In this document: in pieces, positions 29,962 through 49,787 of the stretch
Layout: every line of letters begins with the position of its first letter
Numbering within the stretch: position 1 is the first letter of the stretch
Sequence record: CP132320.1
Direction: 5' to 3' (one strand)
DNA from: a plasmid
DNA length: 53,555 bases
Notes under the pieces: generated by a model
What the model was told of the DNA's origin: nothing
Seen by the model: the letters and a program-made list of their open reading frames with translations, nothing else
Databases searched by the model: none
Made by a program: the position numbers and the translations under genes

Positions 29962-30852
29962 ATGAAAGGGATTATTCTCGCCGGCGGCTCCGGTACCAGG
30001 CTTTATCCAATCACCATGGCCGTCTCCAAGCAGCTGATGCCGGTCTATGACAAACCGATGATATATTATCCGCTGACCACGCTGATGCTGGCAGGAATCA
30101 AGGAAATTCTAATTATCACAACCCCTCACGACAACGAGGCTTTCAAGCGTCTCCTGGGTGATGGTTCCCAATGGGGAATCACGATCAGCTATGCGATGCA
30201 ACCACACCCAGATGGGCTCGCTCAAGCCTTCGTGATAGGCGCGGACTTTGTCGGCTCAAGCCCCTCAGCACTTATTCTAGGCGACAACATTTTCCACGGT
30301 CATGGACTGCCGCAACTCTTGCAAACTGGGTCCGCTATTGAAAGCGGAGCAAGGGTCTTCGCTTATCACGTCACCGATCCAGAACGTTATGGTGTCGTGG
30401 AGTTCGACCAGTCCATGAAAGCACTGTCAATCGAAGAGAAGCCAGCTATGCCTAAGAGCAGCTGGGCAGTAACGGGGCTCTACTTCTACGATCACCAGGT
30501 TGTCGATATCGCTGCGAACTTGACGCCCTCTTCCCGCGGCGAACTAGAGATTACTGACGTCAACAAGATATATCTCGAACGCGGACAGCTCTCTGTCGAG
30601 CTAATTGGCCGAGGTTATGCTTGGCTGGACACCGGAACCCCGGACAGCCTGCTCGAAGCTGCCGAGTTCGTTGCGTTGCTCGAGAAGCGCCAAGGATTTA
30701 AGATCGCTTGCCCAGAGGAGATCGCGTACCGGATGGGGTACATCGATGATAACCAGCTTCAGAAGGTAGCCTCCAATCTTGGAAAGGGCGCATACGCGCA
30801 TTATGTTAGAGAGCTCTTATCCATGGGGAACGTTTCTCACTCTTCAATCTAG
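29962..30852 (+). CDS. rmlA: glucose-1-phosphate thymidylyltransferase
   Basis: [38 protein letters not shown] is the canonical RmlA N-terminus. 296 aa. Confidence 0.93.
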
Positions 30853-31002
30853 ATGACTGGCTATCATTACAAGTCGTAAGGCCTGGCAGCGGAAGGAGCT
30901 TGGTGAAAGACATCTTGTGCTTCTAAGATGACCCCTTTTGTCGCTTAAGTCAGGTCGACAGCCTTACCTGGCCAAAGAAGCACTAGCTGAAAGGGTGATC
31001 AA

Positions 31003-31923
31003 GTGACTGCCGCTGTCTCGATCTTGCTTGCAACATATCAGGGAGAACGGTTTCTTCCGGAGCAACTGAGCACCATAGAAGAGCAGAGCCACTCTGCGTG
31101 GTCTTTGCATGCATCGGATGATGGCTCGACAGATCGAACCCGAACCATCCTAGCAGAATTCGCTCAAAAATCAAAGCGCGAGGTGAACCTCGTCGAAGGC
31201 CCCAGAAAAGGGTTCGTCAGAAACTTTATGCATTTGGTGGCTACCGTTCCTACCGACGCTCCGTACTTCGCCTTTTGCGACCAAGATGACAAGTGGTTGC
31301 CAGAGAAGCTTAAACGGGCTGTAAGGTGGCTAGGCTCTCAGCCCGCTGAGTTACCGTTACTGTTCTGCTCCCGCACACGGAACATCGACCTAGTGGGCCG
31401 CCCAATTGGCTTCTCCCCGTTGTTCCAACGAGGCCCCTCCTTTGGCAATGCTTTAGTCCAAAGCATCGCGGGGGGTAACACGATGGTGATAAATCGCCGT
31501 ATGCTCAACCTCATCAAAGAATTTGGAACGCATCATGAGCTTCCCAGTCACGACTGGTGGTTTTACATTATTGCAACGGGGGTAGGAGGCATTGTTAATT
31601 ACGATCCTTCTCCCACGGTCGATTACCGGCAACACGAACAAAATCAAGTTGGGGCTAATTCCTCGCTCAACGCAAGATTGAGGCGGTTTACCATGCTGAA
31701 GGGTGGCAGGTTTAAGCGCTGGACGGATTTGAACACACTCGCGCTAGAGGAAAACCGGCACCTACTGCTTCCGCAGAACAACGAGATCTTGACACATTTT
31801 CAAAAGATGCGGACAAGCTCTTTCCCTAGCAACCTTAGAGTTCTCCTGAATGGCCCCTTTCGGCGTCAGACTTTTTTAGGGTCCATCGGCCTGTCAGCGG
31901 CCGTGGTGTGGAATAAGATCTAA
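31003..31923 (+). CDS. family-2 glycosyltransferase (likely rhamnosyltransferase)
   Basis: ILLATYQGERFLPEQLSTIEEQSH...HASDDGSTD...FCDQDD are GT2 (GT-A fold) motifs with a DxD. 306 aa. Immediately after rmlA. Confidence 0.8.
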   Translation: MTAAVSILLATYQGERFLPEQLSTIEEQSHSAWSLHASDDGSTDRTRTILAEFAQKSKREVNLVEGPRKGFVRNFMHLVATVPTDAPYFAFCDQDDKWLPEKLKRAVRWLGSQPAELPLLFCSRTRNIDLVGRPIGFSPLFQRGPSFGNALVQSIAGGNTMVINRRMLNLIKEFGTHHELPSHDWWFYIIATGVGGIVNYDPSPTVDYRQHEQNQVGANSSLNARLRRFTMLKGGRFKRWTDLNTLALEENRHLLLPQNNEILTHFQKMRTSSFPSNLRVLLNGPFRRQTFLGSIGLSAAVVWNKI

Positions 31924-31979
31924 AGCGCAAGTTTCGTCCTCATTTAGGTGGCGCGTAAGCATCCGGCGAAGGCCGCAGG

Positions 31980-33635
31980 TCAGGCCGCCTGAGCACTCAG
32001 CGTCTTGGGTGTCCAGTTCCACGGCAGCAATTGCTGCAGCCTGCTGATCGGCGTGTCGGCAATGTTGGCGAGGACATCCGCCAGCCAGGCTTGTGGGTCG
32101 ATGTCATTGAGCTTGGCCGTCATGATCAGCGTCGCCATGAAGGCGGCACGATCAGCACCACGATCCGATCCGGCGAAGAGCCATGACTTCCTGCCGAGAG
32201 CAAAGCCTCTGAGCGCGCGTTCGGCGGCGTTGTTCGTGAGACAAATTCGGCCATCGTCGAGGAATGACGTAAATCCATCCCAGCGCTTCAGCATGTAGTC
32301 GATCGGCTCAGAGACAGGAGAGCTGCGCGACAGTTTTAGCCGCTCGGTTTGGAGCCAGTGATGCAGTTCTTCGATGAGTGGCTGGCTGTCTTGGCGGCGG
32401 CGCTCCAAGCGCTGCTCGGAGCTAAGGCCGTTGATCTCCCGTTCGATATCGAACAGGGCATCGATCCGTTTGACAGCCTCCAGCGCCATCGGCGAGATCG
32501 ATGCGGCTTTGCTGCCACGTTTGGCGTTCGCGGCGATGTCGGCCAGCACGAAGAACTTGCGGCGTGAATGTGCCCAGCAGAGTGCTTGGCGCAGAGGCGC
32601 GGGATCGCGATCTGCCTTGAACAGCGGATTGTAGCCGCCATAGGCATCCGCCTGCAGAATGCCGGAGAAAGTCTTCAGGTGGCGTTCGGGATGCTCCTGT
32701 CGTCGGTCTCGCGTTGCGTAGAACAAAGCTGCAGGCGGTGACAGCCCACCAAACGGCCGGTCATCCCTGACATAGGTCCAGATGCGGCCTGTATCGGTCT
32801 TTCCCTTTGCCAGGATCGGCACGGTCGTGTCGTCGCCATGCAGTCGCTCGGCGGCCAGGACATAGGCTTCGATCAACGAATGGATTGGCTTCAGGGCCGC
32901 GGCACACGCACCGACCTGATCGGCAAGCGTCGACAGGCTGAGGTCGATCCCCTCTCGGGCATAGCGCTCGCTCTGGCGATTGAGCGGCTGATGCTGGGCG
33001 AACTTCTCGAACAGGATCATCGCCAGAAGGTTGGGGCCGGTAAAGCCGCGAGGTGTCACATGGAAGGGCGCTGGCGGCTGAGTGATCTTCTCGCATTCGC
33101 GGCAGGAGAACTTCTCCCGCACGGTCTGAATGACTTTCCACTGACGCGGGATGACCTCCAGGGTCTCGGTGATATCCTCGCCGAGCTTCGACAGCTTTGC
33201 CGAGCCGCAGCAGGGGCAACTGGCTGGGGCGGCGATAACGACACGTTCACGCGGCAGATGTTCAGGAAAGGGCTTGCGTGACGGACGCTTGCGCTCGAAG
33301 GCCCTGACCGTCGAGGCACTGGCTGCGATCTCTGCATCCAGTTCATCTTCGCCGGCATCAGCCTCCAGCTCCTCAAGCTGCAGTTCCATCTGCTCGAGAA
33401 GCCGCGCCTTGCGTTCAGAGCGACTGCCGTAGAGGTCGCGCCGGACCTTCTCGATCTCTAGCTTCAGCCGTGCGATTAGCGCCTCGGAATGCGATACTAG
33501 CGCCCTCGCGCTGGCAGCTTCCGCCTTGGCGGTCGCCGCCTCTGCCTCGGCAGCAACACGCCGCGCGCGCTCTTCGGCAAGCAGTGCGAGTGCACTGGCA
33601 AGGTCGTCCGGAAGCTGTTCGACGCGGGTGTTCAT
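31980..33635 (-). CDS. tnpC: IS66-family transposase TnpC (zinc finger plus DDE), copy A
   Basis: 551 aa. Contains CPCCGS...CRECEKI zinc-finger motifs and the IS66 DDE core. The translation is identical to copies B and C. Confidence 0.9.
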   Translation of the reverse strand: MNTRVEQLPDDLASALALLAEERARRVAAEAEAATAKAEAASARALVSHSEALIARLKLEIEKVRRDLYGSRSERKARLLEQMELQLEELEADAGEDELDAEIAASASTVRAFERKRPSRKPFPEHLPRERVVIAAPASCPCCGSAKLSKLGEDITETLEVIPRQWKVIQTVREKFSCRECEKITQPPAPFHVTPRGFTGPNLLAMILFEKFAQHQPLNRQSERYAREGIDLSLSTLADQVGACAAALKPIHSLIEAYVLAAERLHGDDTTVPILAKGKTDTGRIWTYVRDDRPFGGLSPPAALFYATRDRRQEHPERHLKTFSGILQADAYGGYNPLFKADRDPAPLRQALCWAHSRRKFFVLADIAANAKRGSKAASISPMALEAVKRIDALFDIEREINGLSSEQRLERRRQDSQPLIEELHHWLQTERLKLSRSSPVSEPIDYMLKRWDGFTSFLDDGRICLTNNAAERALRGFALGRKSWLFAGSDRGADRAAFMATLIMTAKLNDIDPQAWLADVLANIADTPISRLQQLLPWNWTPKTLSAQAA

Positions 33636-33680
33636 GGCGAGATGGAATCATATTCGCTCCCGCCATTCCAGCATTTTTGC

Positions 33681-34028
33681 TTATCCGGCCGAGGTCGGTC
33701 GCCAGGTTTTTTGCGGCATCCGCCAGTCTATACCTTCCAGCAAATAACTGAGCTGCGCCGGCGTAATCACGACCGTCCCATCGGCCGCCGACGGCCATAT
33801 GAAGCGTCCCCGTTCCAGCTTCTTCGTGAACAGGCATGCTCCCTGGCCATCATGCCAGATGACCTTGATCAGGCCACCGCCACGACCGCGGAACACGAAC
33901 AGATGCCCGCACATCGGATCGCGCTTCAGCGTCTCCTGCACCATCAGCGACAGACCGGGAAAGCCTTTGCGCATGTCTGTATGGCCCGTTGCCAGCCAGA
34001 CCTTCACACCAGCAGGGACCGGGATCAT
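33681..34028 (-). CDS. tnpB: IS66 Orf2/TnpB, copy A
   Basis: MIPVPAGVKVWLATGHTDMRKGF is the IS66 orf2 family signature. It overlaps the tnpA stop in ATGA fashion. Confidence 0.85.
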   Translation of the reverse strand: MIPVPAGVKVWLATGHTDMRKGFPGLSLMVQETLKRDPMCGHLFVFRGRGGGLIKVIWHDGQGACLFTKKLERGRFIWPSAADGTVVITPAQLSYLLEGIDWRMPQKTWRPTSAG

Positions 34029-34435
34029 CGCCGACCCAGTACACAATCGAGAATGCGGCCAAGCGCCTCCGTGTCGATGTCGCTATCCACGCGGACGCGC
34101 CGACCGCGGCCCAGCTCAATCATCACATCGCTACGCTTGCGGCGGGGCTGCGATGAGGCCGGCGCTTCCGAGGCAACGGGTTGGACTGCCGGCGCGGCCT
34201 CCGATACGACCACGGGCACCAAGGTGTTCGCCGTCTCGGTTCTCGGTTCCTCGATTTGGCAAAGCTCCTTGCGCCACCGAAAGAGCTGGCTGACGTGGAT
34301 GCCGGCCGATCGCGCAATCTCGGAAAGCACCGCCCCAGGCTCAAGGCAGGCTGCAACGAGCCGCTCCTTATCTTCGCGCGACCAGCGCCGACGGCGCTCG
34401 ACAGACGTGATCACTTCAATCGGATGCTTCGTCAT
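34025..34435 (-). CDS. tnpA: IS66 TnpA (small HTH protein), copy A
   Basis: MTKHPIEVITSVERRRRWSREDKERLV is the IS66 orf1 family signature. AGGAG lies 7 nt upstream of the ATG. Confidence 0.85.
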   Translation of the reverse strand: MTKHPIEVITSVERRRRWSREDKERLVAACLEPGAVLSEIARSAGIHVSQLFRWRKELCQIEEPRTETANTLVPVVVSEAAPAVQPVASEAPASSQPRRKRSDVMIELGRGRRVRVDSDIDTEALGRILDCVLGRR

Positions 34436-34521
34436 AGGACTACTCCTAGTGTTTGCACTAGGACTTCCGATGTTCACATCAACCTCGCAAGACGGCCTTC
34501 ACCGGGGGCTTACGGTGGCGC

Positions 34522-34573
34522 ATGTCGCCTGGGCGATACTGCCCATATGATCGGAGCTTGTCGGTGATGATCC
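34522..34573 (-). pseudogene. 52-bp internal piece of an IS6-family transposase remnant, isolated between IS66 copies A and C
   Basis: The minus-strand translation ...PKRIITDKLRSYG matches the IS26-type transposase segment PRFINTDKAPAYG. It continues, in sequence terms, from the remnant at 39716-39985. Confidence 0.4.
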
Positions 34574-34581
34574 GCTTTGGC

Positions 34582-34810
34582 GTAAGCATCCGGCGAAGGC
34601 CGCAGGTCAGGCCGCCTGAGCACTCAGCGTCTTGGGTGTCCAGTTCCACGGCAGCAATTGCTGCAGCCTGCTGATCGGCGTGTCGGCAATGTTGGCGAGG
34701 ACATCCGCCAGCCAGGCTTGTGGGTCGATGTCATTGAGCTTGGCCGTCATGATCAGCGTCGCCATGAAGGCGGCACGATCAGCACCACGATCCGATCCGG
34801 CGAAGAGCCA
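34582..34810 (-). mobile_element. IS66-family copy C, part 1 (tnpC 3' end with terminal repeat); separated from part 2 by the insertion of copy B
   Basis: It begins with the same terminal repeat GTAAGCATCCGGCGAAGG and is identical to copy A 31955-32183. It ends at ...CGAAGAGCCA, where copy B starts. Confidence 0.85.
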
Positions 34811-37369
34811 GTAAGCCCCCGGTGAAGGCCGTCTTGCGAGGTTGATGTGAACATCGGAAGTCCTAGTGCAAACACTAGGAGTAGTCCTATGACGAAGCAT
34901 CCGATTGAAGTGATCACGTCTGTCGAGCGCCGTCGGCGCTGGTCGCGCGAAGATAAGGAGCGGCTCGTTGCAGCCTGCCTTGAGCCTGGGGCGGTGCTTT
35001 CCGAGATTGCGCGATCGGCCGGCATCCACGTCAGCCAGCTCTTTCGGTGGCGCAAGGAGCTTTGCCAAATCGAGGAACCGAGAACCGAGACGGCGAACAC
35101 CTTGGTGCCCGTGGTCGTATCGGAGGCCGCGCCGGCAGTCCAACCCGTTGCCTCGGAAGCGCCGGCCTCATCGCAGCCCCGCCGCAAGCGTAGCGATGTG
35201 ATGATTGAGCTGGGCCGCGGTCGGCGCGTCCGCGTGGATAGCGACATCGACACGGAGGCGCTTGGCCGCATTCTCGATTGTGTACTGGGTCGGCGATGAT
35301 CCCGGTCCCTGCTGGTGTGAAGGTCTGGCTGGCAACGGGCCATACAGACATGCGCAAAGGCTTTCCCGGTCTGTCGCTGATGGTGCAGGAGACGCTGAAG
35401 CGCGATCCGATGTGCGGGCATCTGTTCGTGTTCCGCGGTCGTGGCGGTGGCCTGATCAAGGTCATCTGGCATGATGGCCAGGGAGCATGCCTGTTCACGA
35501 AGAAGCTGGAACGGGGACGCTTCATATGGCCGTCGGCGGCCGATGGGACGGTCGTGATTACGCCGGCGCAGCTCAGTTATTTGCTGGAAGGTATAGACTG
35601 GCGGATGCCGCAAAAAACCTGGCGACCGACCTCGGCCGGATAAGCAAAAATGCTGGAATGGCGGGAGCGAATATGATTCCATCTCGCCATGAACACCCGC
35701 GTCGAACAGCTTCCGGACGACCTTGCCAGTGCACTCGCACTGCTTGCCGAAGAGCGCGCGCGGCGTGTTGCTGCCGAGGCAGAGGCGGCGACCGCCAAGG
35801 CGGAAGCTGCCAGCGCGAGGGCGCTAGTATCGCATTCCGAGGCGCTAATCGCACGGCTGAAGCTAGAGATCGAGAAGGTCCGGCGCGACCTCTACGGCAG
35901 TCGCTCTGAACGCAAGGCGCGGCTTCTCGAGCAGATGGAACTGCAGCTTGAGGAGCTGGAGGCTGATGCCGGCGAAGATGAACTGGATGCAGAGATCGCA
36001 GCCAGTGCCTCGACGGTCAGGGCCTTCGAGCGCAAGCGTCCGTCACGCAAGCCCTTTCCTGAACATCTGCCGCGTGAACGTGTCGTTATCGCCGCCCCAG
36101 CCAGTTGCCCCTGCTGCGGCTCGGCAAAGCTGTCGAAGCTCGGCGAGGATATCACCGAGACCCTGGAGGTCATCCCGCGTCAGTGGAAAGTCATTCAGAC
36201 CGTGCGGGAGAAGTTCTCCTGCCGCGAATGCGAGAAGATCACTCAGCCGCCAGCGCCCTTCCATGTGACACCTCGCGGCTTTACCGGCCCCAACCTTCTG
36301 GCGATGATCCTGTTCGAGAAGTTCGCCCAGCATCAGCCGCTCAATCGCCAGAGCGAGCGCTATGCCCGAGAGGGGATCGACCTCAGCCTGTCGACGCTTG
36401 CCGATCAGGTCGGTGCGTGTGCCGCGGCCCTGAAGCCAATCCATTCGTTGATCGAAGCCTATGTCCTGGCCGCCGAGCGACTGCATGGCGACGACACGAC
36501 CGTGCCGATCCTGGCAAAGGGAAAGACCGATACAGGCCGCATCTGGACCTATGTCAGGGATGACCGGCCGTTTGGTGGGCTGTCACCGCCTGCAGCTTTG
36601 TTCTACGCAACGCGAGACCGACGACAGGAGCATCCCGAACGCCACCTGAAGACTTTCTCCGGCATTCTGCAGGCGGATGCCTATGGCGGCTACAATCCGC
36701 TGTTCAAGGCAGATCGCGATCCCGCGCCTCTGCGCCAAGCACTCTGCTGGGCACATTCACGCCGCAAGTTCTTCGTGCTGGCCGACATCGCCGCGAACGC
36801 CAAACGTGGCAGCAAAGCCGCATCGATCTCGCCGATGGCGCTGGAGGCTGTCAAACGGATCGATGCCCTGTTCGATATCGAACGGGAGATCAACGGCCTT
36901 AGCTCCGAGCAGCGCTTGGAGCGCCGCCGCCAAGACAGCCAGCCACTCATCGAAGAACTGCATCACTGGCTCCAAACCGAGCGGCTAAAACTGTCGCGCA
37001 GCTCTCCTGTCTCTGAGCCGATCGACTACATGCTGAAGCGCTGGGATGGATTTACGTCATTCCTCGACGATGGCCGAATTTGTCTCACGAACAACGCCGC
37101 CGAACGCGCGCTCAGAGGCTTTGCTCTCGGCAGGAAGTCATGGCTCTTCGCCGGATCGGATCGTGGTGCTGATCGTGCCGCCTTCATGGCGACGCTGATC
37201 ATGACGGCCAAGCTCAATGACATCGACCCACAAGCCTGGCTGGCGGATGTCCTCGCCAACATTGCCGACACGCCGATCAGCAGGCTGCAGCAATTGCTGC
37301 CGTGGAACTGGACACCCAAGACGCTGAGTGCTCAGGCGGCCTGACCTGCGGCCTTCGCCGGATGCTTAC
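34811..37369 (+). mobile_element. IS66-family copy B (2559 bp), inserted inside copy C with an 8-bp target duplication AAGAGCCA
   Basis: Complete tnpA (34889..35299), tnpB (35296..35643) and tnpC (35689..37344) on the plus strand. AAGAGCCA is present at 34803-34810 and 37370-37377, while the uninterrupted copy A carries a single AAGAGCCA. Confidence 0.9.
35689..37344 (+). CDS. tnpC: IS66-family transposase TnpC, copy B
   Basis: The 551-aa translation is identical to copy A. Confidence 0.9.
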   Translation: MNTRVEQLPDDLASALALLAEERARRVAAEAEAATAKAEAASARALVSHSEALIARLKLEIEKVRRDLYGSRSERKARLLEQMELQLEELEADAGEDELDAEIAASASTVRAFERKRPSRKPFPEHLPRERVVIAAPASCPCCGSAKLSKLGEDITETLEVIPRQWKVIQTVREKFSCRECEKITQPPAPFHVTPRGFTGPNLLAMILFEKFAQHQPLNRQSERYAREGIDLSLSTLADQVGACAAALKPIHSLIEAYVLAAERLHGDDTTVPILAKGKTDTGRIWTYVRDDRPFGGLSPPAALFYATRDRRQEHPERHLKTFSGILQADAYGGYNPLFKADRDPAPLRQALCWAHSRRKFFVLADIAANAKRGSKAASISPMALEAVKRIDALFDIEREINGLSSEQRLERRRQDSQPLIEELHHWLQTERLKLSRSSPVSEPIDYMLKRWDGFTSFLDDGRICLTNNAAERALRGFALGRKSWLFAGSDRGADRAAFMATLIMTAKLNDIDPQAWLADVLANIADTPISRLQQLLPWNWTPKTLSAQAA

Positions 37370-39707
37370 AAGAGCCATGACTTCCTGCCGAGAGCAAAGC
37401 CTCTGAGCGCGCGTTCGGCGGCGTTGTTCGTGAGACAAATTCGGCCATCGTCGAGGAATGACGTAAATCCATCCCAGCGCTTCAGCATGTAGTCGATCGG
37501 CTCAGAGACAGGAGAGCTGCGCGACAGTTTTAGCCGCTCGGTTTGGAGCCAGTGATGCAGTTCTTCGATGAGTGGCTGGCTGTCTTGGCGGCGGCGCTCC
37601 AAGCGCTGCTCGGAGCTAAGGCCGTTGATCTCCCGTTCGATATCGAACAGGGCATCGATCCGTTTGACAGCCTCCAGCGCCATCGGCGAGATCGATGCGG
37701 CTTTGCTGCCACGTTTGGCGTTCGCGGCGATGTCGGCCAGCACGAAGAACTTGCGGCGTGAATGTGCCCAGCAGAGTGCTTGGCGCAGAGGCGCGGGATC
37801 GCGATCTGCCTTGAACAGCGGATTGTAGCCGCCATAGGCATCCGCCTGCAGAATGCCGGAGAAAGTCTTCAGGTGGCGTTCGGGATGCTCCTGTCGTCGG
37901 TCTCGCGTTGCGTAGAACAAAGCTGCAGGCGGTGACAGCCCACCAAACGGCCGGTCATCCCTGACATAGGTCCAGATGCGGCCTGTATCGGTCTTTCCCT
38001 TTGCCAGGATCGGCACGGTCGTGTCGTCGCCATGCAGTCGCTCGGCGGCCAGGACATAGGCTTCGATCAACGAATGGATTGGCTTCAGGGCCGCGGCACA
38101 CGCACCGACCTGATCGGCAAGCGTCGACAGGCTGAGGTCGATCCCCTCTCGGGCATAGCGCTCGCTCTGGCGATTGAGCGGCTGATGCTGGGCGAACTTC
38201 TCGAACAGGATCATCGCCAGAAGGTTGGGGCCGGTAAAGCCGCGAGGTGTCACATGGAAGGGCGCTGGCGGCTGAGTGATCTTCTCGCATTCGCGGCAGG
38301 AGAACTTCTCCCGCACGGTCTGAATGACTTTCCACTGACGCGGGATGACCTCCAGGGTCTCGGTGATATCCTCGCCGAGCTTCGACAGCTTTGCCGAGCC
38401 GCAGCAGGGGCAACTGGCTGGGGCGGCGATAACGACACGTTCACGCGGCAGATGTTCAGGAAAGGGCTTGCGTGACGGACGCTTGCGCTCGAAGGCCCTG
38501 ACCGTCGAGGCACTGGCTGCGATCTCTGCATCCAGTTCATCTTCGCCGGCATCAGCCTCCAGCTCCTCAAGCTGCAGTTCCATCTGCTCGAGAAGCCGCG
38601 CCTTGCGTTCAGAGCGACTGCCGTAGAGGTCGCGCCGGACCTTCTCGATCTCTAGCTTCAGCCGTGCGATTAGCGCCTCGGAATGCGATACTAGCGCCCT
38701 CGCGCTGGCAGCTTCCGCCTTGGCGGTCGCCGCCTCTGCCTCGGCAGCAACACGCCGCGCGCGCTCTTCGGCAAGCAGTGCGAGTGCACTGGCAAGGTCG
38801 TCCGGAAGCTGTTCGACGCGGGTGTTCATGGCGAGATGGAATCATATTCGCTCCCGCCATTCCAGCATTTTTGCTTATCCGGCCGAGGTCGGTCGCCAGG
38901 TTTTTTGCGGCATCCGCCAGTCTATACCTTCCAGCAAATAACTGAGCTGCGCCGGCGTAATCACGACCGTCCCATCGGCCGCCGACGGCCATATGAAGCG
39001 TCCCCGTTCCAGCTTCTTCGTGAACAGGCATGCTCCCTGGCCATCATGCCAGATGACCTTGATCAGGCCACCGCCACGACCGCGGAACACGAACAGATGC
39101 CCGCACATCGGATCGCGCTTCAGCGTCTCCTGCACCATCAGCGACAGACCGGGAAAGCCTTTGCGCATGTCTGTATGGCCCGTTGCCAGCCAGACCTTCA
39201 CACCAGCAGGGACCGGGATCATCGCCGACCCAGTACACAATCGAGAATGCGGCCAAGCGCCTCCGTGTCGATGTCGCTATCCACGCGGACGCGCCGACCG
39301 CGGCCCAGCTCAATCATCACATCGCTACGCTTGCGGCGGGGCTGCGATGAGGCCGGCGCTTCCGAGGCAACGGGTTGGACTGCCGGCGCGGCCTCCGATA
39401 CGACCACGGGCACCAAGGTGTTCGCCGTCTCGGTTCTCGGTTCCTCGATTTGGCAAAGCTCCTTGCGCCACCGAAAGAGCTGGCTGACGTGGATGCCGGC
39501 CGATCGCGCAATCTCGGAAAGCACCGCCCCAGGCTCAAGGCAGGCTGCAACGAGCCGCTCCTTATCTTCGCGCGACCAGCGCCGACGGCGCTCGACAGAC
39601 GTGATCACTTCAATCGGATGCTTCGTCATAGGACTACTCCTAGTGTTTGCACTAGGACTTCCGATGTTCACATCAACCTCGCAAGACGGCCTTCACCGGG
39701 GGCTTAC
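37370..39707 (-). mobile_element. IS66-family copy C, part 2 (remainder of tnpC, plus tnpB and tnpA)
   Basis: Minus-strand tnpC is truncated at the copy-B insertion (ORF 37366..38829, 487 aa). tnpB is at 38875..39222 and tnpA at 39219..39629. The 8-bp target duplication GCTTTGGC is at 34574-34581 and 39708-39715. Confidence 0.85.
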
Positions 39708-39715
39708 GCTTTGGC

Positions 39716-39985
39716 AGGCACCCTTGGTTCTTCATCAGCCTGCTCAACAGGCGCTTGGCCGCTTTGGTTTTGCGGCGCGTCTGGACGATCTCGTCGAGAA
39801 CGTAGCCGTCTTGATCAACGTCACGCCAGAGCCAGTGCTTCCGCCCACCGATCGTCACAACCACCTCGTCGAGATGCCACACCGGAAGTAGAGCAAGCCA
39901 GCATGGGCGATCACAGATGGCGGGAAGCGATGGCGTTCGTAGCTCACAGGGTTCAGTTTTATCACCCCAACATAGCCGCAGAACC
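39716..39985 (-). pseudogene. IS6-family (IS26-like) transposase remnant with its terminal inverted repeat
   Basis: Minus-strand WHLDEVVVTIGGRKHWLWRDVDQDGYVLDEIVQTRRKTKAAKRLL parallels IS26 WHMDETYVKVNGRWAYLYRAVDSRGRTVDFYLSSRRNSKAAYRFL. An IS6-type terminal repeat GGTTCTGCGGCTATGTTGGGGTGATAAAAC lies at 39985-39956 (reverse-complement). It is internally deleted. Confidence 0.55.
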
Positions 39986-40010
39986 TAACCTGGTTTAACC
40001 TGACATCACC
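39961..40010. repeat. inverted-repeat partner 1 (IS6-type terminal repeat plus 19-bp flank); mate of 48510-48561
   Basis: The reverse-complement reads GGTGATGTCAGGTTAAACCAGGTTAGGTTCTGCGGCTATGTTGGGGTGAT. Confidence 0.7.
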
Positions 40011-40095
40011 CTAAGACGCTGCAGCTTGAACTAGATACTTGACTTGAACATCCTGCATTGCAATGGGTTTACTGTTGCTTCACCTAGGATACCAC

Positions 40096-42840
40096 ATGCT
40101 CAACGATACCGCCATCATCCACCACCTGGACATCCCTCTTCCATACGAGCTGCACGTTGGTCGCGGTCAGTTCTTGCACCTGCGTGGATGGGCGTTTTCT
40201 CCTGCCTTTGCGACACAGTGGGCGCACCTAGATGTGGGCGGGGAGCCCGTGCTTCTGGGAATGCACTCTATGCCACGGCGCGATGTTATCAGACAGATGT
40301 ATCCTGACCACGATAAGAATGGTTATTCCCTAAATTCCGGCTTCTGGTGCACTACGCCTGTCGCCGAGCATTGGATAGGCCAAAGCCTGCCCGTCTCTCT
40401 TGTTTTAGGTGGCGGGGGCAAAGTCGCGAAGGTAGAGCTAGGGACGGTAGAATTTAACAAGAACTTCAAAGATGTCCCCCTTCCCTATAAGTGGCTTGGC
40501 AACGGCCCAAAAGTTGCAATCTGTATGGCGGCGTACAGACCAAATTCAAGAATGTTTCGCCGGCAGCTCGATAGCATTAGGGGGCAAAGCTTCACGAACT
40601 GGATGTGTGTCATCACTGATGATAGTGCTTCAGCGCAGCATTCTGAAGAAATAGAGCGAATAGTTGGAGACGATACGAGGTTCATTGTCATAAAGAACGA
40701 GGCCAATCTAGGCTTCTATCATAACTTTGAAAAAGCTATTGGGTTAGCTCCGCCTGATGCTGATTTTATTGCATTGAGCGACCAGGATGATCGTTGGGAC
40801 ATGGACAAACTTGAGGCGTTAGTCAGTGCATTTAAACATGAGACTAGTTTAGTTTATTCCGACTGCCGCTTAACCGACGAAGCTGGAAACATTCTCTCAC
40901 CAACCTATTGGTCAACGCGGCGAAACAACTATGATAACCTTTCCACCTTAGCAATTGCTAACACGGTGACTGGCGCCGCAAGCATGTTCAGAGCGGCGAT
41001 TCGGCCCAAAATCCTTCCTTTTCCTCAGCGCGAGGGCGACGCTTATCACGATCACTGGATTGCCTTAGTCGCAAGAGCTAATGGGCCTATTAGGTATATC
41101 GAGCGCCCCCTGTATGACTACGTCCAGCACGAGAACAACGTGATTGGCCATAGTGGAAATCAGCGCTATCCGGGGATAACTAGCTTCGCCCGGCAAGTTG
41201 CTCGACATGCTAATCAGCCCACGAGAATGCTTTCCACCGCGAGCGAGGTACTTAGCGTCGCAATTACTCAATACCAGTTTCTGTTGAGGGTGTCGCTGAT
41301 GGCGCGCACCATACTTTATCGACAAGATCGGTTCTACTTGAAGCAAGACCGACGGACGTTTGTCAAGCTCGCCAGATACTCTGATAGCAAATGGGTTCCT
41401 CTGGCCGAGAAGACTTTGTCTATGATTCAGCGCCGCCCGTCTCTCAACCTCGAAGGTCACTTTCTTTATTCTGCTTGGGGAGCGCGTGCGGCGAGACTTT
41501 ACTATCGCTTGCGCGGTGTGAAACGCTATAGAACGGCACTCGATCATCCCGCCTCCGCCCTGCCACCAACACCCCTGGAATCATCTTCCGCTACATCCCA
41601 ATCTCATCCTGCCGTCGATGGGATTTTGCATGCAATCGCTCCTCTTACTCCAGATCTTGATACAACCGAGCCACAGCGGTTGAACCTTCTGATGGCCCGG
41701 ATTGACTTCAGATATGTCTACGGCGGCTACATAGGCATGTTCAACCTTGCAGCCCGTCTCGCGAAGGCAGGGAGGAGGGTGCGGATTGTTCTGCTTGAGG
41801 AGGGGGATTATGACCTCGCGCAGTGGCGGACGCAAATCGCCAAGTATCCCGGGCTGGAAGACCTGTTTGACCGGGTCGAGGTCGTTTATCGCTTCCACCG
41901 AGACAAACCGCTTCCAATGAACCCGCAAGATGGTTTTATCGCCACCAATGGTTGGAGCGCGCACGTAGCCCATTCAACTCTCAAGCGCCTGAACCGCGAA
42001 GGCTTCGTCTTTATGGCGCAGGAGTTCGAACCATTATTCTTGCCCTCAGGTACGATCCACGCGCTATTTCTCCAGAGTTACGACCTGCCTCAATTCACCT
42101 ATTTTTCCACGCCTCTCCTTCGCGATTATTTCCGTTCGAAGAGGCTTGGTATCTATCGAAATGGCGATACTCGCGCCGCGCAGGAGAACTGCGCCGTCTT
42201 CAAGAACGCAATCCTCCCATTCGATATGGATCTACAAAAAATCCGGGAGGCAGAAAAACGCATCGTGTTTTATGCTAGACCTGAGCAGCATGCGGCTCGG
42301 AACCTCTTTGAGTTGGGCTACATGGCGTTGCAGGCGCTTGTTGCCGCCTCCGATCTCAGAGGATGGTCGTTCCACGGCATTGGGCATCTCGGGGGGCAAA
42401 GTTCTTTGCCGCTTGGTGCTGGCGCGGAACTGAAAATGCTCCCGAAGACCGGCTTAGGCGAATACAAAGACATGCTAGTCAAGCACTCGGTTGGAATGTC
42501 GCTGATGCATTCTCCTCACCCAAGCCTCGTACCTCTGGAAATGGCGGCAGCCGGTCTGAGCACCGTCACAACAACCTACGAAAACAAAACAGAGGATGCG
42601 ATGCGGATGATCTCGTCAAATCTGATAGCTGTGCCGCCCACCGTGGACGGTCTTGTTTCCGGCCTCAAAGAGGCAATTGGCCGTATCGAACAACACGAAA
42701 GGCGGCTCGCGGGCACTCATGTTGATTGGCCTACCGATTGGCAACAAGCATTCAAAGAGAGCGATATCGCCATGTTACTTAGGTACCTGGATGAACGCGC
42801 TAAACCGTTCGCGCCTCATGGAGTTGTGGGAGCTGCATGA
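40096..42840 (+). CDS. large multi-domain glycosyltransferase (central GT2 domain plus additional N- and C-terminal domains)
   Basis: The ATG at 40096 is preceded by AGGA with 7-nt spacing. GT2 motifs include VAICMAAYRP...VITDDSASA...ALSDQDDRWD with a DxD. A ~400-aa C-terminal region resembles a second transferase-like domain. Visibly lower GC. Confidence 0.7.
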   Translation: MLNDTAIIHHLDIPLPYELHVGRGQFLHLRGWAFSPAFATQWAHLDVGGEPVLLGMHSMPRRDVIRQMYPDHDKNGYSLNSGFWCTTPVAEHWIGQSLPVSLVLGGGGKVAKVELGTVEFNKNFKDVPLPYKWLGNGPKVAICMAAYRPNSRMFRRQLDSIRGQSFTNWMCVITDDSASAQHSEEIERIVGDDTRFIVIKNEANLGFYHNFEKAIGLAPPDADFIALSDQDDRWDMDKLEALVSAFKHETSLVYSDCRLTDEAGNILSPTYWSTRRNNYDNLSTLAIANTVTGAASMFRAAIRPKILPFPQREGDAYHDHWIALVARANGPIRYIERPLYDYVQHENNVIGHSGNQRYPGITSFARQVARHANQPTRMLSTASEVLSVAITQYQFLLRVSLMARTILYRQDRFYLKQDRRTFVKLARYSDSKWVPLAEKTLSMIQRRPSLNLEGHFLYSAWGARAARLYYRLRGVKRYRTALDHPASALPPTPLESSSATSQSHPAVDGILHAIAPLTPDLDTTEPQRLNLLMARIDFRYVYGGYIGMFNLAARLAKAGRRVRIVLLEEGDYDLAQWRTQIAKYPGLEDLFDRVEVVYRFHRDKPLPMNPQDGFIATNGWSAHVAHSTLKRLNREGFVFMAQEFEPLFLPSGTIHALFLQSYDLPQFTYFSTPLLRDYFRSKRLGIYRNGDTRAAQENCAVFKNAILPFDMDLQKIREAEKRIVFYARPEQHAARNLFELGYMALQALVAASDLRGWSFHGIGHLGGQSSLPLGAGAELKMLPKTGLGEYKDMLVKHSVGMSLMHSPHPSLVPLEMAAAGLSTVTTTYENKTEDAMRMISSNLIAVPPTVDGLVSGLKEAIGRIEQHERRLAGTHVDWPTDWQQAFKESDIAMLLRYLDERAKPFAPHGVVGAA

Positions 42841-43272
42841 ACCCAAAATAAATTCTTGTAGCGAGAGGACTGAAGCGGATCATCAATAGCTACTTACCTC
42901 CTGATCCTTGAGAAGAGGACCGGACAGAGAAGTAGTGGGTGTGGCCGAAAGCCTCAAACTTGCTAAACAAGTGCCTAGACTCCTTCAGGCATATCATTAT
43001 TAAAATCTGCGCTTCATCCTAGTGGGGATGGGCATGATAATGCTGAACCGCGCCCTCTGTTCACGTTTCACTAGGTGACTAGCGACGTGAGCGTCCTTTA
43101 GATGTCGCAGGTTGCGCCGCTTGAGCTTCGACGAATCGGACCCGATACCATGGAAGTAGTTAATCCAGCCTGATCGTGGGCCTGGCGGCGCTTCGGGCAA
43201 AGACGTCGGCAAAGTAGGCCTGCCGATTGAAGTCTACGCTCGGCCCTCGGAGCATAACAAACTGGACCAAAG

Positions 43273-44214
43273 ATGATTTGCGATAAAGGCCTCACGAATT
43301 CTCCAGTGTCGGTTTTCGTACACGTTTATTATTTGGACATTTGGCGTGAAATATCGATGCAGATCGAGGCGCGTCTTGATGTTCCATTTCGTCTGATCAT
43401 AACCACACACCATGATGCCTCCTTGATTGATTTCCCAAGATCGCCTTATTTGACAGGGTGGGTGATCTACCCCGTCGGCAACAGGGGCCGCGACATTCTT
43501 CCATTTCTTAAGGCGCTTCATGACGAATACGGCACATTCGAAGTTGGGCTAAAGCTTCACACCAAGCGTTCCCCTCATCGTAGCGATGGCGACGTGTGGC
43601 GCCGCGCCATGATCGACTCTTTGGTACCTCAGGCCGGAGTAAGCTCGCTTGTAAGGTTGCTTTACGATCGACCAGAAGTGGGTCTCGTCGCACCCGAAGG
43701 ATTTTACGTGCCTATCCGTCAATGGATTGCAGGAAACAAGAAGGTAATAGCCACTGTCGCTAAAGCTACTGACCTAAGCGTTACGAAGGAAGAACTTCGC
43801 CAACGGTACTTCTCTGCTGGTTCAATGTTTTGGTTCCGATCCGCCGCTCTTAAGCAGGCGCTGCTGCCCTCACTTTTCTCAATGTTCGAGGATGAAGAGA
43901 GCCAACTTGATGCGACGGTCGCACATGCGCTGGAACGATTGTTCGCGTTGATAGTAGAGAAATCCGGATATGTGGCGGTGACTGCAGATCTTCTGTCAGT
44001 AGACCAAAAAGCCTCGCCGGATGCGACCTTGGCAGCAAGTGGGCGGTCTGGGGCCTGTCATCCTGTCCTTATGCAGCCTGACTACTTTTGGCTAAAGGCC
44101 AGTGGACTTCTGTTTATAGCCAAGCCAATCTTCCATTCACTCCCTCCGGTTTGGAGGGCCCGCCTTCGGTATTATTTTTCGCCGAAGCAAAGGCCCGGGA
44201 AACAGTCGAGGTAG
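43273..44214 (+). CDS. rhamnan-synthesis protein F (RgpF)-like glycosyltransferase
   Basis: The N-terminal VFVHVYYLDIW...RLIITTHHD pattern is characteristic of the RgpF family (H.YY.D...). 313 aa. Confidence 0.55.
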   Translation: MICDKGLTNSPVSVFVHVYYLDIWREISMQIEARLDVPFRLIITTHHDASLIDFPRSPYLTGWVIYPVGNRGRDILPFLKALHDEYGTFEVGLKLHTKRSPHRSDGDVWRRAMIDSLVPQAGVSSLVRLLYDRPEVGLVAPEGFYVPIRQWIAGNKKVIATVAKATDLSVTKEELRQRYFSAGSMFWFRSAALKQALLPSLFSMFEDEESQLDATVAHALERLFALIVEKSGYVAVTADLLSVDQKASPDATLAASGRSGACHPVLMQPDYFWLKASGLLFIAKPIFHSLPPVWRARLRYYFSPKQRPGKQSR

Positions 44215-44376
44215 TAGAAACCTCAGTTTGCTCTAAAGAAAAGTCTTGCGGCACTGCCTTGACCGGCTAACACCTAAATCAATTTTAGGAGCAGCTGAAA
44301 CAGGGGCACTTTTTATCTTCATGTCGCACGTGAAGAGATCTAAGAACAGCGGCTGAAACAGAAAATGGATTAACCT

Positions 44377-45186
44377 ATGTTGGAATATCTGCGAAGCTCA
44401 TGGGATCAGCGGGCACTCGTTTGGCGGCTTGCTCGACGTGAAATCGATTCTCGGTTTCGGGGGTCACTTCTTGGAGTTCTCTGGGCAGTCATCGTGCCGC
44501 TGGTCATGCTCTCTGTCTATTCCTTGGTGTTTGGGACTGTATTTCAGTCTCGCTGGCCCCGCCCCGACGACGCCACAATGCTCCATCAAGTTGACTTCCC
44601 GATGATTCTCTTCACGGGCCTCATTGTATTCGGTATTTTTTCTGACCCGATAAACCGCGCGCCGACGCTGATCCTAGAGAACGTTTCCTATGTCAAGAAA
44701 GTGGTGTTTTCGCTAGAGATCCTACCCGTGGTTGCGCTAATCAATGCGCTCTTCACGGCCTTGATATCATCGGGTGTCCTCTTGACAGTTTACCTAATTC
44801 TCTACGGCATACCGCCGATGACGGCTCTGTTGCTGCCCCTGGCTGTCGCGCCGTTGATCTTAATAACCTTGGGAATCTCGTACGTTCTCGCCTCCTTGTC
44901 AGTCTTCCTGCGTGACCTGAGGCACCTCACCGCTCCTTTGACGACAGCCGTGCTGTTTCTCTCGCCGGTATTTTATTCAATCAACGTCCTTCCGGAAGCG
45001 TGGCGTTGGACGCTGTATCTCAACCCTATAACACTCGCGGTCATTTACACCCGGGACTTACTGTTCTGGGGAAAGCTGCCCAGCCCAATGCAATGGGCGA
45101 CATATCTACTCGCTGCACTTGCTGTAGCTAGCGTTGGCTCATGGTGGTTCTCTCGCACGAAAAAGGCTTTTGCTGATGTCCTCTAA
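44377..45186 (+). CDS. wzm: ABC-2 type polysaccharide (O-antigen) export permease
   Basis: 269 aa with six predicted TM helices and an ABC-2 permease profile. It overlaps the start of the ATPase gene. Confidence 0.88.
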   Translation: MLEYLRSSWDQRALVWRLARREIDSRFRGSLLGVLWAVIVPLVMLSVYSLVFGTVFQSRWPRPDDATMLHQVDFPMILFTGLIVFGIFSDPINRAPTLILENVSYVKKVVFSLEILPVVALINALFTALISSGVLLTVYLILYGIPPMTALLLPLAVAPLILITLGISYVLASLSVFLRDLRHLTAPLTTAVLFLSPVFYSINVLPEAWRWTLYLNPITLAVIYTRDLLFWGKLPSPMQWATYLLAALAVASVGSWWFSRTKKAFADVL

Positions 45187-46513
45187 TATTGCACTGAAGG
45201 CCGCTGGCTTAGGCAAGGCTTTTCAGATTTACAGAAAGCCACAGGATCGACTTAAGCAGATGGTTTTCCGTTGGAATCGGTATTACGAGGAGTACTGGGC
45301 CGTACAGAATGTAGATCTTACCGTTCATCGGGGAGAGACCGTGGGTATTGTCGGCCGCAACGGCTCGGGGAAGTCCACACTTCTCCAGTTAATAGCGGGG
45401 ACTTTACAACCGAGCGTGGGGACACTCTCGGTGTATGGCCGAGTCGCCCCCCTTCTGGAACTCGGCGCAGGATTCAACCCCGAGTTCACCGGCCGTGAGA
45501 ACGTCAAGCTAGCCGGAACTATCATGGGCGTTGCTCCGGATTATATCAATAAACGCTTTGACGAAATTCTTGATTTTGCAGGCATAGGTGAATTTATTGA
45601 GCAGCCTGTTAAGACTTACTCTTCCGGGATGTACGCCCGCCTTGCCTTTGCGGTTGCGGCCCATGTTGAGCCAGATATTCTCATCGTCGACGAAACCCTT
45701 TCTGTGGGCGACGCCGCTTTCGGCCAGAAATGCATGCGGTACATCAGGCAATTTAAGAAAGATGGGACGTTGCTGTTTGTCTCTCATGACACCGCGGCGG
45801 TGACGGCATTATGCGATCGGGTGCTATGGCTGGACAATGGTATGATACGCGCCGAGGGTGCAACCAAGGACGTAACGTTCGCCTACCACGCTGCCTTACG
45901 CGAAGAGATCGATGGTGGGGGCTTTTCAGTCGCGGGACGGAGACGACATCATCCCGTCCAACCAAGCCGCGACCTCAGGCACGAAAAGATCCGGAAGTCG
46001 GATAAACGCAACGTAATTGAGGTATTCGAGTTTGACCCTGACGCACCATCATTTGGCAAGAAGGGGGGGACCATCGACTATGTCAGAATTAAAACCGCCG
46101 GCGGTGGTCATCTCGCGGAACCAGAGGGCGGTGAGAGCGTAACGGTAGAAATAGTCTGCACGGCACAGGCGGAGCTAACTAACCCCATCATTGGTTTCTT
46201 ATTAAGAGACAAGCTCGCCCAAAACATCTTCGGAGATAATACCTACTTGAGCTATGCCGAGGATCATGTCTCTGTTGCCGCAGGTCAACAGTTCAAAGCC
46301 TCATTTACTTTTCAGATGCCGTATCTTCCACCGGGCGACTACAGCATCGCCGCTGCACTTGCAGAGGGCAGTCAGACGGACCACGTGCAACATCATTGGA
46401 TTGATGAGGCGTTGATTTTTCGGATAGCTGCAGGCCACGTCACCCATGGCGTGTTGGGTATACCAATGAACGAAATAACGCTTGAAGTACTTACGAAGGA
46501 GGACATGGAATGA
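45176..46513 (+). CDS. wzt: polysaccharide export ABC ATP-binding protein with a C-terminal carbohydrate-binding extension
   Basis: Walker A GRNGSGKST, signature YSSGMYARLAF and Walker B ILIVDE. A ~200-aa C-terminal extension beyond the ATP-binding domain is as seen in Wzt proteins that recognise a modified O-polysaccharide terminus. Confidence 0.88.
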   Translation: MSSNIALKAAGLGKAFQIYRKPQDRLKQMVFRWNRYYEEYWAVQNVDLTVHRGETVGIVGRNGSGKSTLLQLIAGTLQPSVGTLSVYGRVAPLLELGAGFNPEFTGRENVKLAGTIMGVAPDYINKRFDEILDFAGIGEFIEQPVKTYSSGMYARLAFAVAAHVEPDILIVDETLSVGDAAFGQKCMRYIRQFKKDGTLLFVSHDTAAVTALCDRVLWLDNGMIRAEGATKDVTFAYHAALREEIDGGGFSVAGRRRHHPVQPSRDLRHEKIRKSDKRNVIEVFEFDPDAPSFGKKGGTIDYVRIKTAGGGHLAEPEGGESVTVEIVCTAQAELTNPIIGFLLRDKLAQNIFGDNTYLSYAEDHVSVAAGQQFKASFTFQMPYLPPGDYSIAAALAEGSQTDHVQHHWIDEALIFRIAAGHVTHGVLGIPMNEITLEVLTKEDME

Positions 46514-47196: not shown

Positions 47197-47216
47197 ATAA
47201 TCTTAAGGACAATGAG

Positions 47217-48380: not shown

Positions 48381-48509
48381 ACATACCCTTCACCTTCGCA
48401 GTTCTTCGTACCCACCTCGAATCGTGGTTCAAGATGCTTCCTTGATCAACTGCTTCCAGTGGTCAGCGTGAAGCTTATCTTAGAGCAACTGCCCAAGAGC
48501 AGTTCCTTT

Positions 48510-48561
48510 GGTGATGCCAGGTTAAACCAGGGGTAAGTTCTGCGGCTATGTTGGGGTGATG
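48510..48561. repeat. inverted-repeat partner 2 (IS6-type terminal repeat plus 19-bp flank); mate of 39961-40010
   Basis: GGTGATGCCAGGTTAAACCAGGGGTAAGTTCTGCGGCTATGTTGGGGTGAT matches about 45 of 50 positions of the mate. It is cut at 48566/48567 by an IS66-family end. Confidence 0.7.
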
Positions 48562-48566
48562 AGCCG

Positions 48567-49731: not shown

Positions 49732-49787
49732 GGCGTCACGACACGGAAGTGGTGAATCTGTCCGACTTTTGAGAACGTATCCAGAAC

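Follow-up and report, generated by a model that had tools for sequence, protein, structure and literature searches.

How did three copies of one insertion sequence come to lie one inside another on a single plasmid? The window analysed here, a 53,555-nucleotide stretch of plasmid CP132320.1, contains three IS66-family copies, designated A, B and C, which a sequence-only reading had interpreted as a nest with a separate 8-bp target duplication for each copy, formed by very recent, repeated local transposition, including self-targeting, inside a polysaccharide gene cluster.

Anatomy of the nest

As summarized in Table 1, the nest is composed of the intact copies A and B and of copy C, which is split by the inverted copy B. 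Nucleotide comparison revealed that all three are copies of one element, 100% identical in DNA, as the sequence-only reading had expected: copies A and B are exact reverse complements of each other over 2559 bp each, and removal from copy C of B together with exactly 8 bp, i.e. one AAGAGCCA, left 2559 bp identical to A, while none of the other trims of copy C that were tried restored a sequence identical to A. The proposed octamer pairs were all located at the IS termini, so that each copy has its own 8-bp duplication, and AAGAGCCA, which had been claimed to occur once in the intact copy A, was found there at position 32176 only and, reverse-complemented, once in copy B (37141). The geometry was also in good agreement with the proposal, A and C being direct repeats spaced by 68 bp (34514-34581; 8 + 52 + 8 bp) and B being inverted, with the inverted arms of the identical 2.6-kb repeats 297 and 221 bp apart. 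Within the window, six IS ends were detected, none of them solo, with 0.07 expected by chance. The claim that TnpA, TnpB and TnpC are identical in all three copies held at the DNA level, but the TnpC product of copy C differs from those of A and B, because B splits tnpC at codons 485-487 and the ORF left encodes 487 aa instead of the intact 551 aa.

Table 1. Coordinates of the nest, its target duplications and the neighbouring genes in the window.
Feature	Position	Strand	Basis or remark
Glycosyltransferase family 2 gene, intact	31003-31923	plus	3' end 24 bp upstream of the left GGTGGCGC
Target duplication of copy A, GGTGGCGC	left 31947-31954; right 34514-34521		
IS66-family copy A, intact, 2559 bp	31955-34513	minus	Sequence identity, ORFs, Pfam
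Copy A genes	tnpC 31980-33635; tnpB 33681-34028; tnpA 34025-34435	minus	ORFs, Pfam
52-bp stretch of original target between sites A and C	34522-34573		IS6 remnant from 34539 on
Target duplication of copy C, GCTTTGGC	left 34574-34581; right 39708-39715		
Copy C, tnpC-end fragment, 229 bp	34582-34810	minus	IS positions 2331-2559, with IRR
Target duplication of copy B, AAGAGCCA	left 34803-34810; right 37370-37377		Left: IS positions 2331-2338 of copy C
IS66-family copy B, intact, 2559 bp	34811-37369	plus	Inverted within tnpC of copy C
Copy B genes	tnpA 34889-35299; tnpB 35296-35643; tnpC 35689-37344	plus	
Copy C, tnpA-end fragment	37370-39707 (37378-39707 without the second AAGAGCCA)	minus	IS positions 1-2338, with IRL
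Copy C genes	tnpA 39219-39629; tnpB 38875-39222; truncated tnpC ORF 37366-38829	minus	
Decayed IS6-family transposase remnant, main part	39716-39962	minus	Restored ORF, IS6 matches; other part 34539-34581
GT2 and WsaF-type glycosyltransferase gene, 925 aa, intact	40063-42840	plus	First gene downstream of the nest

Family and distribution of the element

The element is a standard IS66-family IS, having tnpA, tnpB and tnpC, GTAAGC termini and 8-bp duplications. TnpC matched DDE_Tnp_IS66 (PF03050) with an E value of 9.6e-89 over profile positions 2-283 of 284 and further carries the zf-IS66, LZ_Tnp_IS66 and DDE_Tnp_IS66_C domains (PF13005, PF13007, PF13817), while TnpB matched TnpB_IS66 (PF05717; E 1.2e-37) and TnpA matched HTH_Tnp_1 (PF01527). 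The tnpA and tnpB genes overlap by ATGA at IS positions 486-489, and tnpC starts 45 bp past tnpB. The terminal inverted repeats of the IS66 family are imperfect, approximately 20-30 bp long, and start with GTAAGC; those of the present element, GTAAGCCCCCGGTGAAGGCCG and GTAAGCATCCGGCGAAGGCCG, are likewise imperfect, begin with GTAAGC and match at 18 of 21 positions. An 8-bp direct duplication accompanied the three events in the window as well as the composite structure on CP132318.1 described below, and was also found in contig L011 (GAAATACT); duplications of this length have been reported for IS66 (PMC6778807) and for IS66-family elements (PMC3281130). The tnpA-tnpB-tnpC layout and the Pfam domains are shared with IS66 of the Agrobacterium tumefaciens Ti/At plasmids, IS679, ISPpa5 and ISPpa7, which further resemble the element in their length (~2.5-2.8 kb), imperfect terminal inverted repeats, 8-bp duplications and occurrence on Rhizobiaceae plasmids.

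Since the best PLSDB plasmid matches outside Shinella showed 90.7% nucleotide identity, and the draft-genome copies of Rhizobium sp. TH135 and the Rhizobiales isolate AFS098815 showed 99.4% and 98.1%, respectively, the element appears to be a distinct isoform or species of IS. A scan of the GTDB representative genomes with the 31-nt IRL identified eight loci, distributed over Rhizobium, Rhizobiales and Novosphingobium, with no match in Shinella.

Target site and surrounding genes

The nest occupies a stretch of old, decayed transposon sequence on a Shinella-type plasmid. It is flanked by two glycosyltransferase genes, both belonging to a plasmid-borne polysaccharide cluster of the rhamnose type. 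Copy C sits in a decayed IS6-family transposase remnant, which spans aa 1-33 and 76-147 of a 235-aa transposase, and copy A sits in the 48 bp between the glycosyltransferase stop codon and this remnant. Computed removal of A and C restored the ORF of the IS6 remnant, and an intact Rhizobium IS6 element aligned unbroken across the C site (211 bp, 85.8%). The reconstructed empty site and this alignment thus identified the targets as the remnant and intergenic DNA, and disruption of a polysaccharide gene by the insertions was rejected; the proposed location inside a polysaccharide cluster was correct, with no polysaccharide gene among the targets. In another haplotype, the intergenic pad is occupied by an unrelated IS3-family element. 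A PLSDB search with both flanks returned no empty site, its matches being only distant rfb genes and IS6.

Junctions and empty sites in independent samples

Comparison with related samples, which the sequence-only reading had recommended in search of an empty site, revealed that site A is empty in two of them: contigs L003 (ERR14864704) and L004 (ERR14864699) carry a single GGTGGCGC followed by the end of copy C, with flanks 100% identical to those of the window. Both contigs also contain the C-left junction with its flank. The A-left junction was found in Logan contig L002 (SRR25482851), and the C-right junction in L005 (SRR25480257) and L025 (SRR25482851), so that these two of the proposed octamer junctions are also present in independent short-read contigs. 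The nest-internal junctions, namely A-right/spacer/C-left of this strain and both B junctions, are based on the assembly, and are supported by the duplication logic and by the end point of L003, whose last base is the one directly preceding B. Overall, copy C was common to at least four samples. Copy A is polymorphic; the haplotypes that differ in it show 100% flank identity over some 2 kb and 9.6 kb.

A putative composite unit on another plasmid

Two more 100% identical copies were found on the Shinella sumterensis plasmid CP132318.1, where they bracket 11.65 kb of signalling genes in direct orientation. Their outer flanks share one 8-bp duplication, GCGATGGA, and the uninterrupted site is present, 100% identical, on the sister-strain plasmid NZ_CP132306.1; the structure thus has the two bracketing ISs, the single outer duplication and the empty site elsewhere that characterize a composite transposon. 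Close by is a different IS66-family remnant in the same orientation, with the composite located 232 bp beyond its IRR. These features suggest that the same IS mobilized the 11.65 kb of signalling genes as one composite unit, although an unresolved cointegrate or an inserted circular unit would account for the structure equally well. Taken as A + spacer + C(B), the nest shares the outer-end geometry of IS-bounded composite transposons, but differs in that its cargo would consist only of 52 bp and copy B. The matching plasmid records give Homo sapiens as their source.

Insertion history

In two samples, copy C is in place while site A is empty; C thus preceded A, which is a later insertion and polymorphic. 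The nest was very probably built by three separate simple insertions of one active IS66-family element into a small patch of non-essential DNA. Copy C would have entered the old IS6-family transposase remnant; thereafter, and in either order, copy B would have inserted in inverted orientation within tnpC of C, thereby inactivating C's own transposase, and copy A would have landed 52 bp outside the tnpC end of C in the same orientation as C. Each insertion presumably proceeded through an 8-bp staggered cut of the target, as is usual in this family, followed by gap repair that would leave one direct 8-bp duplication per copy, with strand transfer by the DDE transposase TnpC and retention of the donor copies. 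Given that each copy has its own duplication, that the copies are identical and that site A is empty elsewhere, the nest is best explained by a single active IS66-family element that transposed repeatedly and recently, once into its own copy, in line with the original proposal. Compared across samples, the empty sites for A (L003 and L004) and for the composite unit (NZ_CP132306.1) further indicate that the element is mobile. As to the claim that transposition was local, hopping from a nearby donor is plausible from the clustering, but identical copies are present on another plasmid too; the clustering might arise from short-range reinsertion or from the tolerance of insertions in dead DNA.

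We consider it unlikely that the clustering has a mechanistic cause, with IS66-family transposition complexes being attracted by IS DNA or by resident ends of their family, as opposed to unspecific local hopping or the survival of neutral insertions. All four events in this lineage did occur in or near IS DNA, C in the IS6 remnant and B in C, with A 52 bp outside the IRR of C and the CP132318.1 composite likewise outside an IS66-family IRR, both in the same orientation as their neighbour. These are four events only, however, and the relatives (87-99% identity) in five other genomes adjoin or interrupt ordinary genes, with no nearby transposase in the ORFs scanned; IS-associated insertions thus amount to 4/4 in this lineage against 0/5 for the related copies in other genomes, a very small sample, and general IS-proximal targeting was not supported by these relatives. 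Moreover, neither a consensus among the seven target octamers nor IR-like decoy sequences near the targets were found, and the occupation of the same pad by the unrelated IS3-family element fits a tolerated landing pad. An end preference of the IS30, IS21 or IS911-like kind would be recognized by a statistical enrichment of insertions at or in the element's own ends over many independent events, for which the present sample is far too small. A narrower reading, in which IS66-family complexes capture target DNA near a resident IS66-family end, is suggested by the two outside insertions, which lie 52 bp and 232 bp past the IRR of a resident element and share its orientation, and by a third insertion within the element; although we regard it as improbable, it would, if true, provide a first mechanistic clue to IS66-family target choice. 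The literature searched contained nothing specific on the mechanism or chemistry of IS66-family transposition or on self-insertion.

It is likewise unlikely that the insertions are older, their identity being maintained by gene conversion among adjacent homologous copies. The copies do lie within 8 kb of each other, a favourable distance, and the presence of C in several samples implies that this copy is not brand new. However, 100% identity also extends to the two copies on the other replicon and to those in unrelated Logan assemblies, A is polymorphic among haplotypes with identical flanks, and the composite is absent from the sister strain at a 100% identical empty site. The lack of any difference among the copies could nevertheless stem in part from gene conversion between neighbouring copies.

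An assembly artefact, in which repeat-resolution errors or chimeric foldback reads turned one or two real copies into a triple nest, seems very unlikely. Three identical 2.6-kb repeats with inverted arms in such proximity are hard for short reads, and the B-in-C junction was not recovered elsewhere: the 487-aa truncated TnpC of copy C was absent from the gene index, and a scan of JGI metagenomes gave no match to the exact B-left junction. The same scan gave no match to the C-empty site. An artefact, however, would not be expected to place three different, exact 8-bp direct duplications precisely at the IS termini, nor to yield a perfect copy upon removal of B and 8 bp. In addition, the outer junctions recur in independent short-read assemblies, the haplotype with A empty and C filled marks separate events, and the end of L003 coincides with the B junction, which is what a real branch point in an assembly graph would produce. 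Intramolecular replicative transposition generates inversions or deletions and an IS copy without its own flanking direct duplication. An origin of A by unequal crossing-over or tandem duplication of C, or of the copies by such intramolecular (Shapiro-type) events, can practically be dismissed despite A and C being direct repeats just 68 bp apart, as it is contradicted by the duplication pattern: the duplication of A differs from that of C, the A octamer is single-copy in the empty haplotype, and all three copies are flanked by their own direct duplication.

Relation to known arrangements

Nested IS clusters are common in rhizobial plasmids. The present nest appears to mark an IS66-family element that is currently mobile in a Shinella sumterensis-like lineage. 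Both the family of this active IS and the type of arrangement are known, and the nest represents ordinary mobile-element behaviour, which is useful for annotation and strain typing and involves no new biological principle. A total of 7.7 kb of IS DNA interrupts the polysaccharide cluster, and the large direct and inverted repeats can delete or invert the region; their proposed role as substrates for homologous deletion or inversion follows from the repeat geometry. Copies of IS66 likewise serve as homologous-deletion substrates, and IS66-mediated deletions have been documented in Agrobacterium (PMC6778807). Like the nested clusters of rhizobial and agrobacterial plasmids, the nest consists of ISs in ISs or their remnants within accessory DNA, but it differs from them in having three identical copies of one element, one of them inserted in its own copy, and in having all duplications intact, so that the order of events can be read. 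One such nested example is an A. tumefaciens relative of the element, which is interrupted by an IS3-family element.

Anatomy of the nest

A repeat search covering 30-42 kb of the window recovered A and B as an inverted pair of 2559 nt with 100% complementarity, together with inverted pairs of 2338 nt (34811-37148 versus 37370-39707) and 229 nt (34582-34810 versus 37141-37369) and the direct repeats corresponding to all of these. In a script check, A proved to be the exact reverse complement of B, and C became identical to A upon removal of B and exactly 8 bp (34582-34810 joined to 37378-39707), with no other trim tried restoring this identity. The sequence-only reading of three identical copies, C being split by B, was thus borne out at 100% nucleotide identity, as were its flanking octamers, of which AAGAGCCA occurs once in the intact copy A (at 32176), and the 68-bp spacing between A and C, composed of 8 + 52 + 8 bp. 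A terminal-repeat search allowing at most three mismatches found exactly six IS ends in the window, where chance would give 0.07, and none of them stood alone; no additional copies or fragments of the IS were found elsewhere in the window.

On every defining feature that can be read from sequence, including the 8-bp duplications, the element is a member of the IS66 family. TnpC matched the full DDE_Tnp_IS66 profile (E 9.6e-89), and the termini GTAAGCCCCCGGTGAAGGCCG / GTAAGCATCCGGCGAAGGCCG matched at 18/21 positions. Duplications of the same size as those in the window have been published for IS66 (PMC6778807) and for Paracoccus IS66-family members (PMC3281130). The insertion of B at IS positions 2331-2338 of C, corresponding to TnpC codons 485-487, cut the transposase ORF of C to 487 aa (37366-38829) with loss of the C-terminal element. 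The reported identity of TnpC in all three copies is thus true of the DNA, but the protein product of C differs.

Features of the nest, the element, the backbone and the mobile-element genes in the window
Feature	Position	Strand	Remarks
Copy A	31955-34513	minus	duplication GGTGGCGC at 31947 and 34514
Copy B	34811-37369	plus	inside C; duplication AAGAGCCA at 34803 and 37370
Copy C	34582-34810, 37378-39707	minus	duplication GCTTTGGC at 34574 and 39708
IS6-family remnant	34539-34581, 39716-39962	minus	C inside
TnpA	IS 79-489		136 aa; HTH_Tnp_1
TnpB	IS 486-833		115 aa; TnpB_IS66; ATGA overlap with tnpA
TnpC	IS 879-2534		551 aa; LZ_Tnp_IS66, zf-IS66, DDE_Tnp_IS66, DDE_Tnp_IS66_C
MCP fragment	377-1195
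MobA/MobL-helicase relaxase	2604-6248	minus
Type IV coupling protein	7406-9067
VirC1/ParA-like ATPase	10623-11294
ParB-domain protein	12983-15217		744 aa
Resolvase-type genes (two)	17367-17933, 21007-21687
IS5-type DDE fragment	18997-19386
DUF6118	within 1-23326
AsnC regulator	within 1-23326
IS3-family integrase-core fragment	49153-49791	minus	directly downstream of polysaccharide cluster
Tn3-family transposase	50049-53501		full-length, 1150 aa; directly downstream of polysaccharide cluster

Target DNA and surroundings

In silico removal of A, C(B) (copy C carrying B) and one copy per duplication yielded a minus-strand frame with clear similarity to IS6-family transposases. On the right-hand side of C, 175 bp matched, at 85-86%, Rhizobium plasmid genes annotated as IS6-family transposases, and the restored site aligned with the intact element of R. 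leguminosarum pRL3 as one unbroken 211-bp segment (85.8%) spanning the C insertion point, which independently validated the duplication of C. Only aa 1-33 and 76-147 of the 235-aa transposase are left in the remnant, which was thus already dead before the insertion. Copy A occupies a 48-bp interval between the stop codon of a GT2 gene (31003-31923) and the remnant start. As C lies within the remnant and A is intergenic, interruption of a polysaccharide gene by the nest was rejected.

The surroundings were indeed a polysaccharide cluster, with all genes on the plus strand: an initiating sugar transferase, a Polysacc_synt_2 dehydratase, an epimerase, a four-gene set with Pfam domains matching the dTDP-rhamnose (rml) pathway, GT2, the nest, a GT2-WsaF fusion, RgpF, an ABC-2 permease, an ABC ATPase with a Wzt_C domain, and methyltransferases. 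This co-oriented cluster is parted by 7.7 kb of IS DNA into an upstream and a downstream half. The G+C content was 50-54% in the polysaccharide genes around the nest (30000-32000 and 40000-49000), 61.8% in the IS, and 54% to 62% in the remaining intervals of 1-30 kb; the low value of the cluster is the usual signature of horizontally acquired surface-polysaccharide clusters.

With a MobA/MobL relaxase, a coupling protein, ParA-/ParB-like genes, resolvases, IS5 and IS3 fragments and a Tn3-type transposase, the backbone of the cluster looks plasmid- or ICE-like. The upstream part listed in the table spans 1-23326, and the IS3- and Tn3-family genes downstream (49153-53501) thus place mobile-element genes on both sides of the cluster.

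Order of insertion in independent samples

Short-read (Logan) contigs were retrieved through exact-protein look-ups. Two from SRR25482851 (L002 and L025; L-numbers denote retrieved sequences) were 100% identical to the window, their ends lying 27 bp inside A (left junction) and 29 bp inside C (right junction); the latter junction was also present in L005 (SRR25480257). The empty-site comparison proposed earlier succeeded with L003 (ERR14864704) and L004 (ERR14864699), which were 100% identical over 1997 bp to the reconstructed A-empty sequence, carried one GGTGGCGC only, and ran on into the IRR (tnpC-end terminal repeat) of C. Since A is empty but C filled in these contigs, C is the older insertion and a shared one; A is, as judged from these haplotypes, a later one, polymorphic among otherwise identical sequences, and B must be younger than C. 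L003 ended exactly at the last base before B, as would be expected where the assembly graph forks into an interrupted and an intact copy, and this is suggestive of such a fork.

A metagenome haplotype (L024, ERR14864699) was 100% identical to window 40033-49617, carried to the left of 40033 an IS3-family element (HTH_Tnp_1 orfA) in place of the IS6 remnant, and at 49617 was joined directly to sequence seen at window 51838; other mobile elements have thus rearranged the same locus differently. In eight sequencing runs (L019; SRR35124154 and 7 other samples), the IS also formed a contig of its own, exactly 2559 bp long, the pattern expected of a multi-copy repeat with differing flanks, and no circle junction between IRR and IRL (the tnpA-end repeat) was seen in these contigs.

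Copies elsewhere

In PLSDB, a plasmid collection whose records do not include the window's own replicon, two copies on Shinella sumterensis UPHL-collab-3 plasmid unnamed2 (CP132318.1) matched the IS at 100%, and the plasmid matches ranking next reached 90.7% (Agrobacterium). These two copies are in direct orientation without individual duplications, and their outer flanks share GCGATGGA; the 11.65 kb between them encodes CheR, CheB, hybrid kinases and response regulators, with 99.2-99.6% identity to Brucella anthropi and Agrobacterium plasmids. The unit (CP132318.1 21953-38722; L001/L006/L015/L016) is a 16.8-kb insertion resembling a composite transposon, or possibly a cointegrate. Its joined outer flanks matched at 100% over 480 bp an uninterrupted site in sister strain 1760953 plasmid unnamed4 (L022, NZ_CP132306.1 23510-23989), and no IS copy of at least 99% identity was found on that strain's plasmids in PLSDB. 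Recent mobility was thus proven a second time, independently, by the composite and its empty site.

Just upstream of the composite site, and also in the sister strain, lies a remnant of a different IS66-family element (L015 ~2560-2890), comprising a TnpC C-terminus and the terminus GACCGGACGCTTAC, 232 bp from the IRL of plasmid copy 2 and in the same orientation as the composite. A 98.1% relative in Rhizobiales isolate AFS098815 (L011 2110-4668) splits an Eco57I/N6-methylase-type gene with the duplication GAAATACT.

Origin and clustering of the copies

The presence on every copy of a direct duplication of its own indicated simple insertions, and three separate insertions of one IS very probably account for the nest: C first, B into C, and A later than C. 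Intramolecular replicative events would not give each copy its own direct duplication, and both this origin and unequal crossover were ruled out on account of those duplications. As several identical copies persist, the donor was retained or restored, either copy-out/paste-in or cut-and-paste from a replicated sister being a candidate; a literature search for the IS66-family transposition pathway found no description among the papers it covered.

We infer, rather than calculate over full genomes, that the clustering is far beyond uniform random insertion. Short-range reinsertion and tolerance of insertions in dead DNA are candidate causes, as is attraction to IS ends, in that 4/4 events of this lineage lie in or near IS DNA and the two "outside" events fall 52 and 232 bp past an IS66-family IRR, oriented like the resident element. 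However, relatives in five other genomes adjoin or interrupt ordinary genes, the target octamers lack a consensus, and in the other haplotype an unrelated IS3-family element abuts window 40033 in the same intergenic pad.

The observation in the sequence-only reading was correct and its interpretation essentially right: the duplications and empty sites upheld recent, repeated transposition of one active IS66 element, self-insertion included. Three points need correcting: the insertions hit the IS6 remnant and intergenic DNA, copy C encodes a shortened TnpC, and "local" transposition is no more than plausible. Both the element, a textbook member of the IS66 family, and the familiar type of nest it forms offer nothing novel, and the nest is useful for annotation and strain comparison.

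Recombination substrates

The window coordinates agreed with the proposed deletion and inversion substrates (A and C direct, B inverted), and the outcomes were derived from them. Recombination between A and the large part of C (2330-bp direct repeats) would delete 5194 bp and leave one intact IS with mismatched flanks, and that between A and the small part (229-bp direct repeats) would delete 2627 bp. A and B, as 2559-bp inverted repeats 297 bp apart, would invert the spacer, and B and the large part of C form 2338-bp inverted repeats 221 bp apart. In Agrobacterium, deletions between IS66 copies have been documented, known by mismatched flanking octamers (PMC6778807). A 99.4% relative in Rhizobium sp. 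TH135 (L014 3435-5994) has mismatched flanking octamers, ATGCAATC versus GTCTGGAA, as would be expected from recombination between copies.
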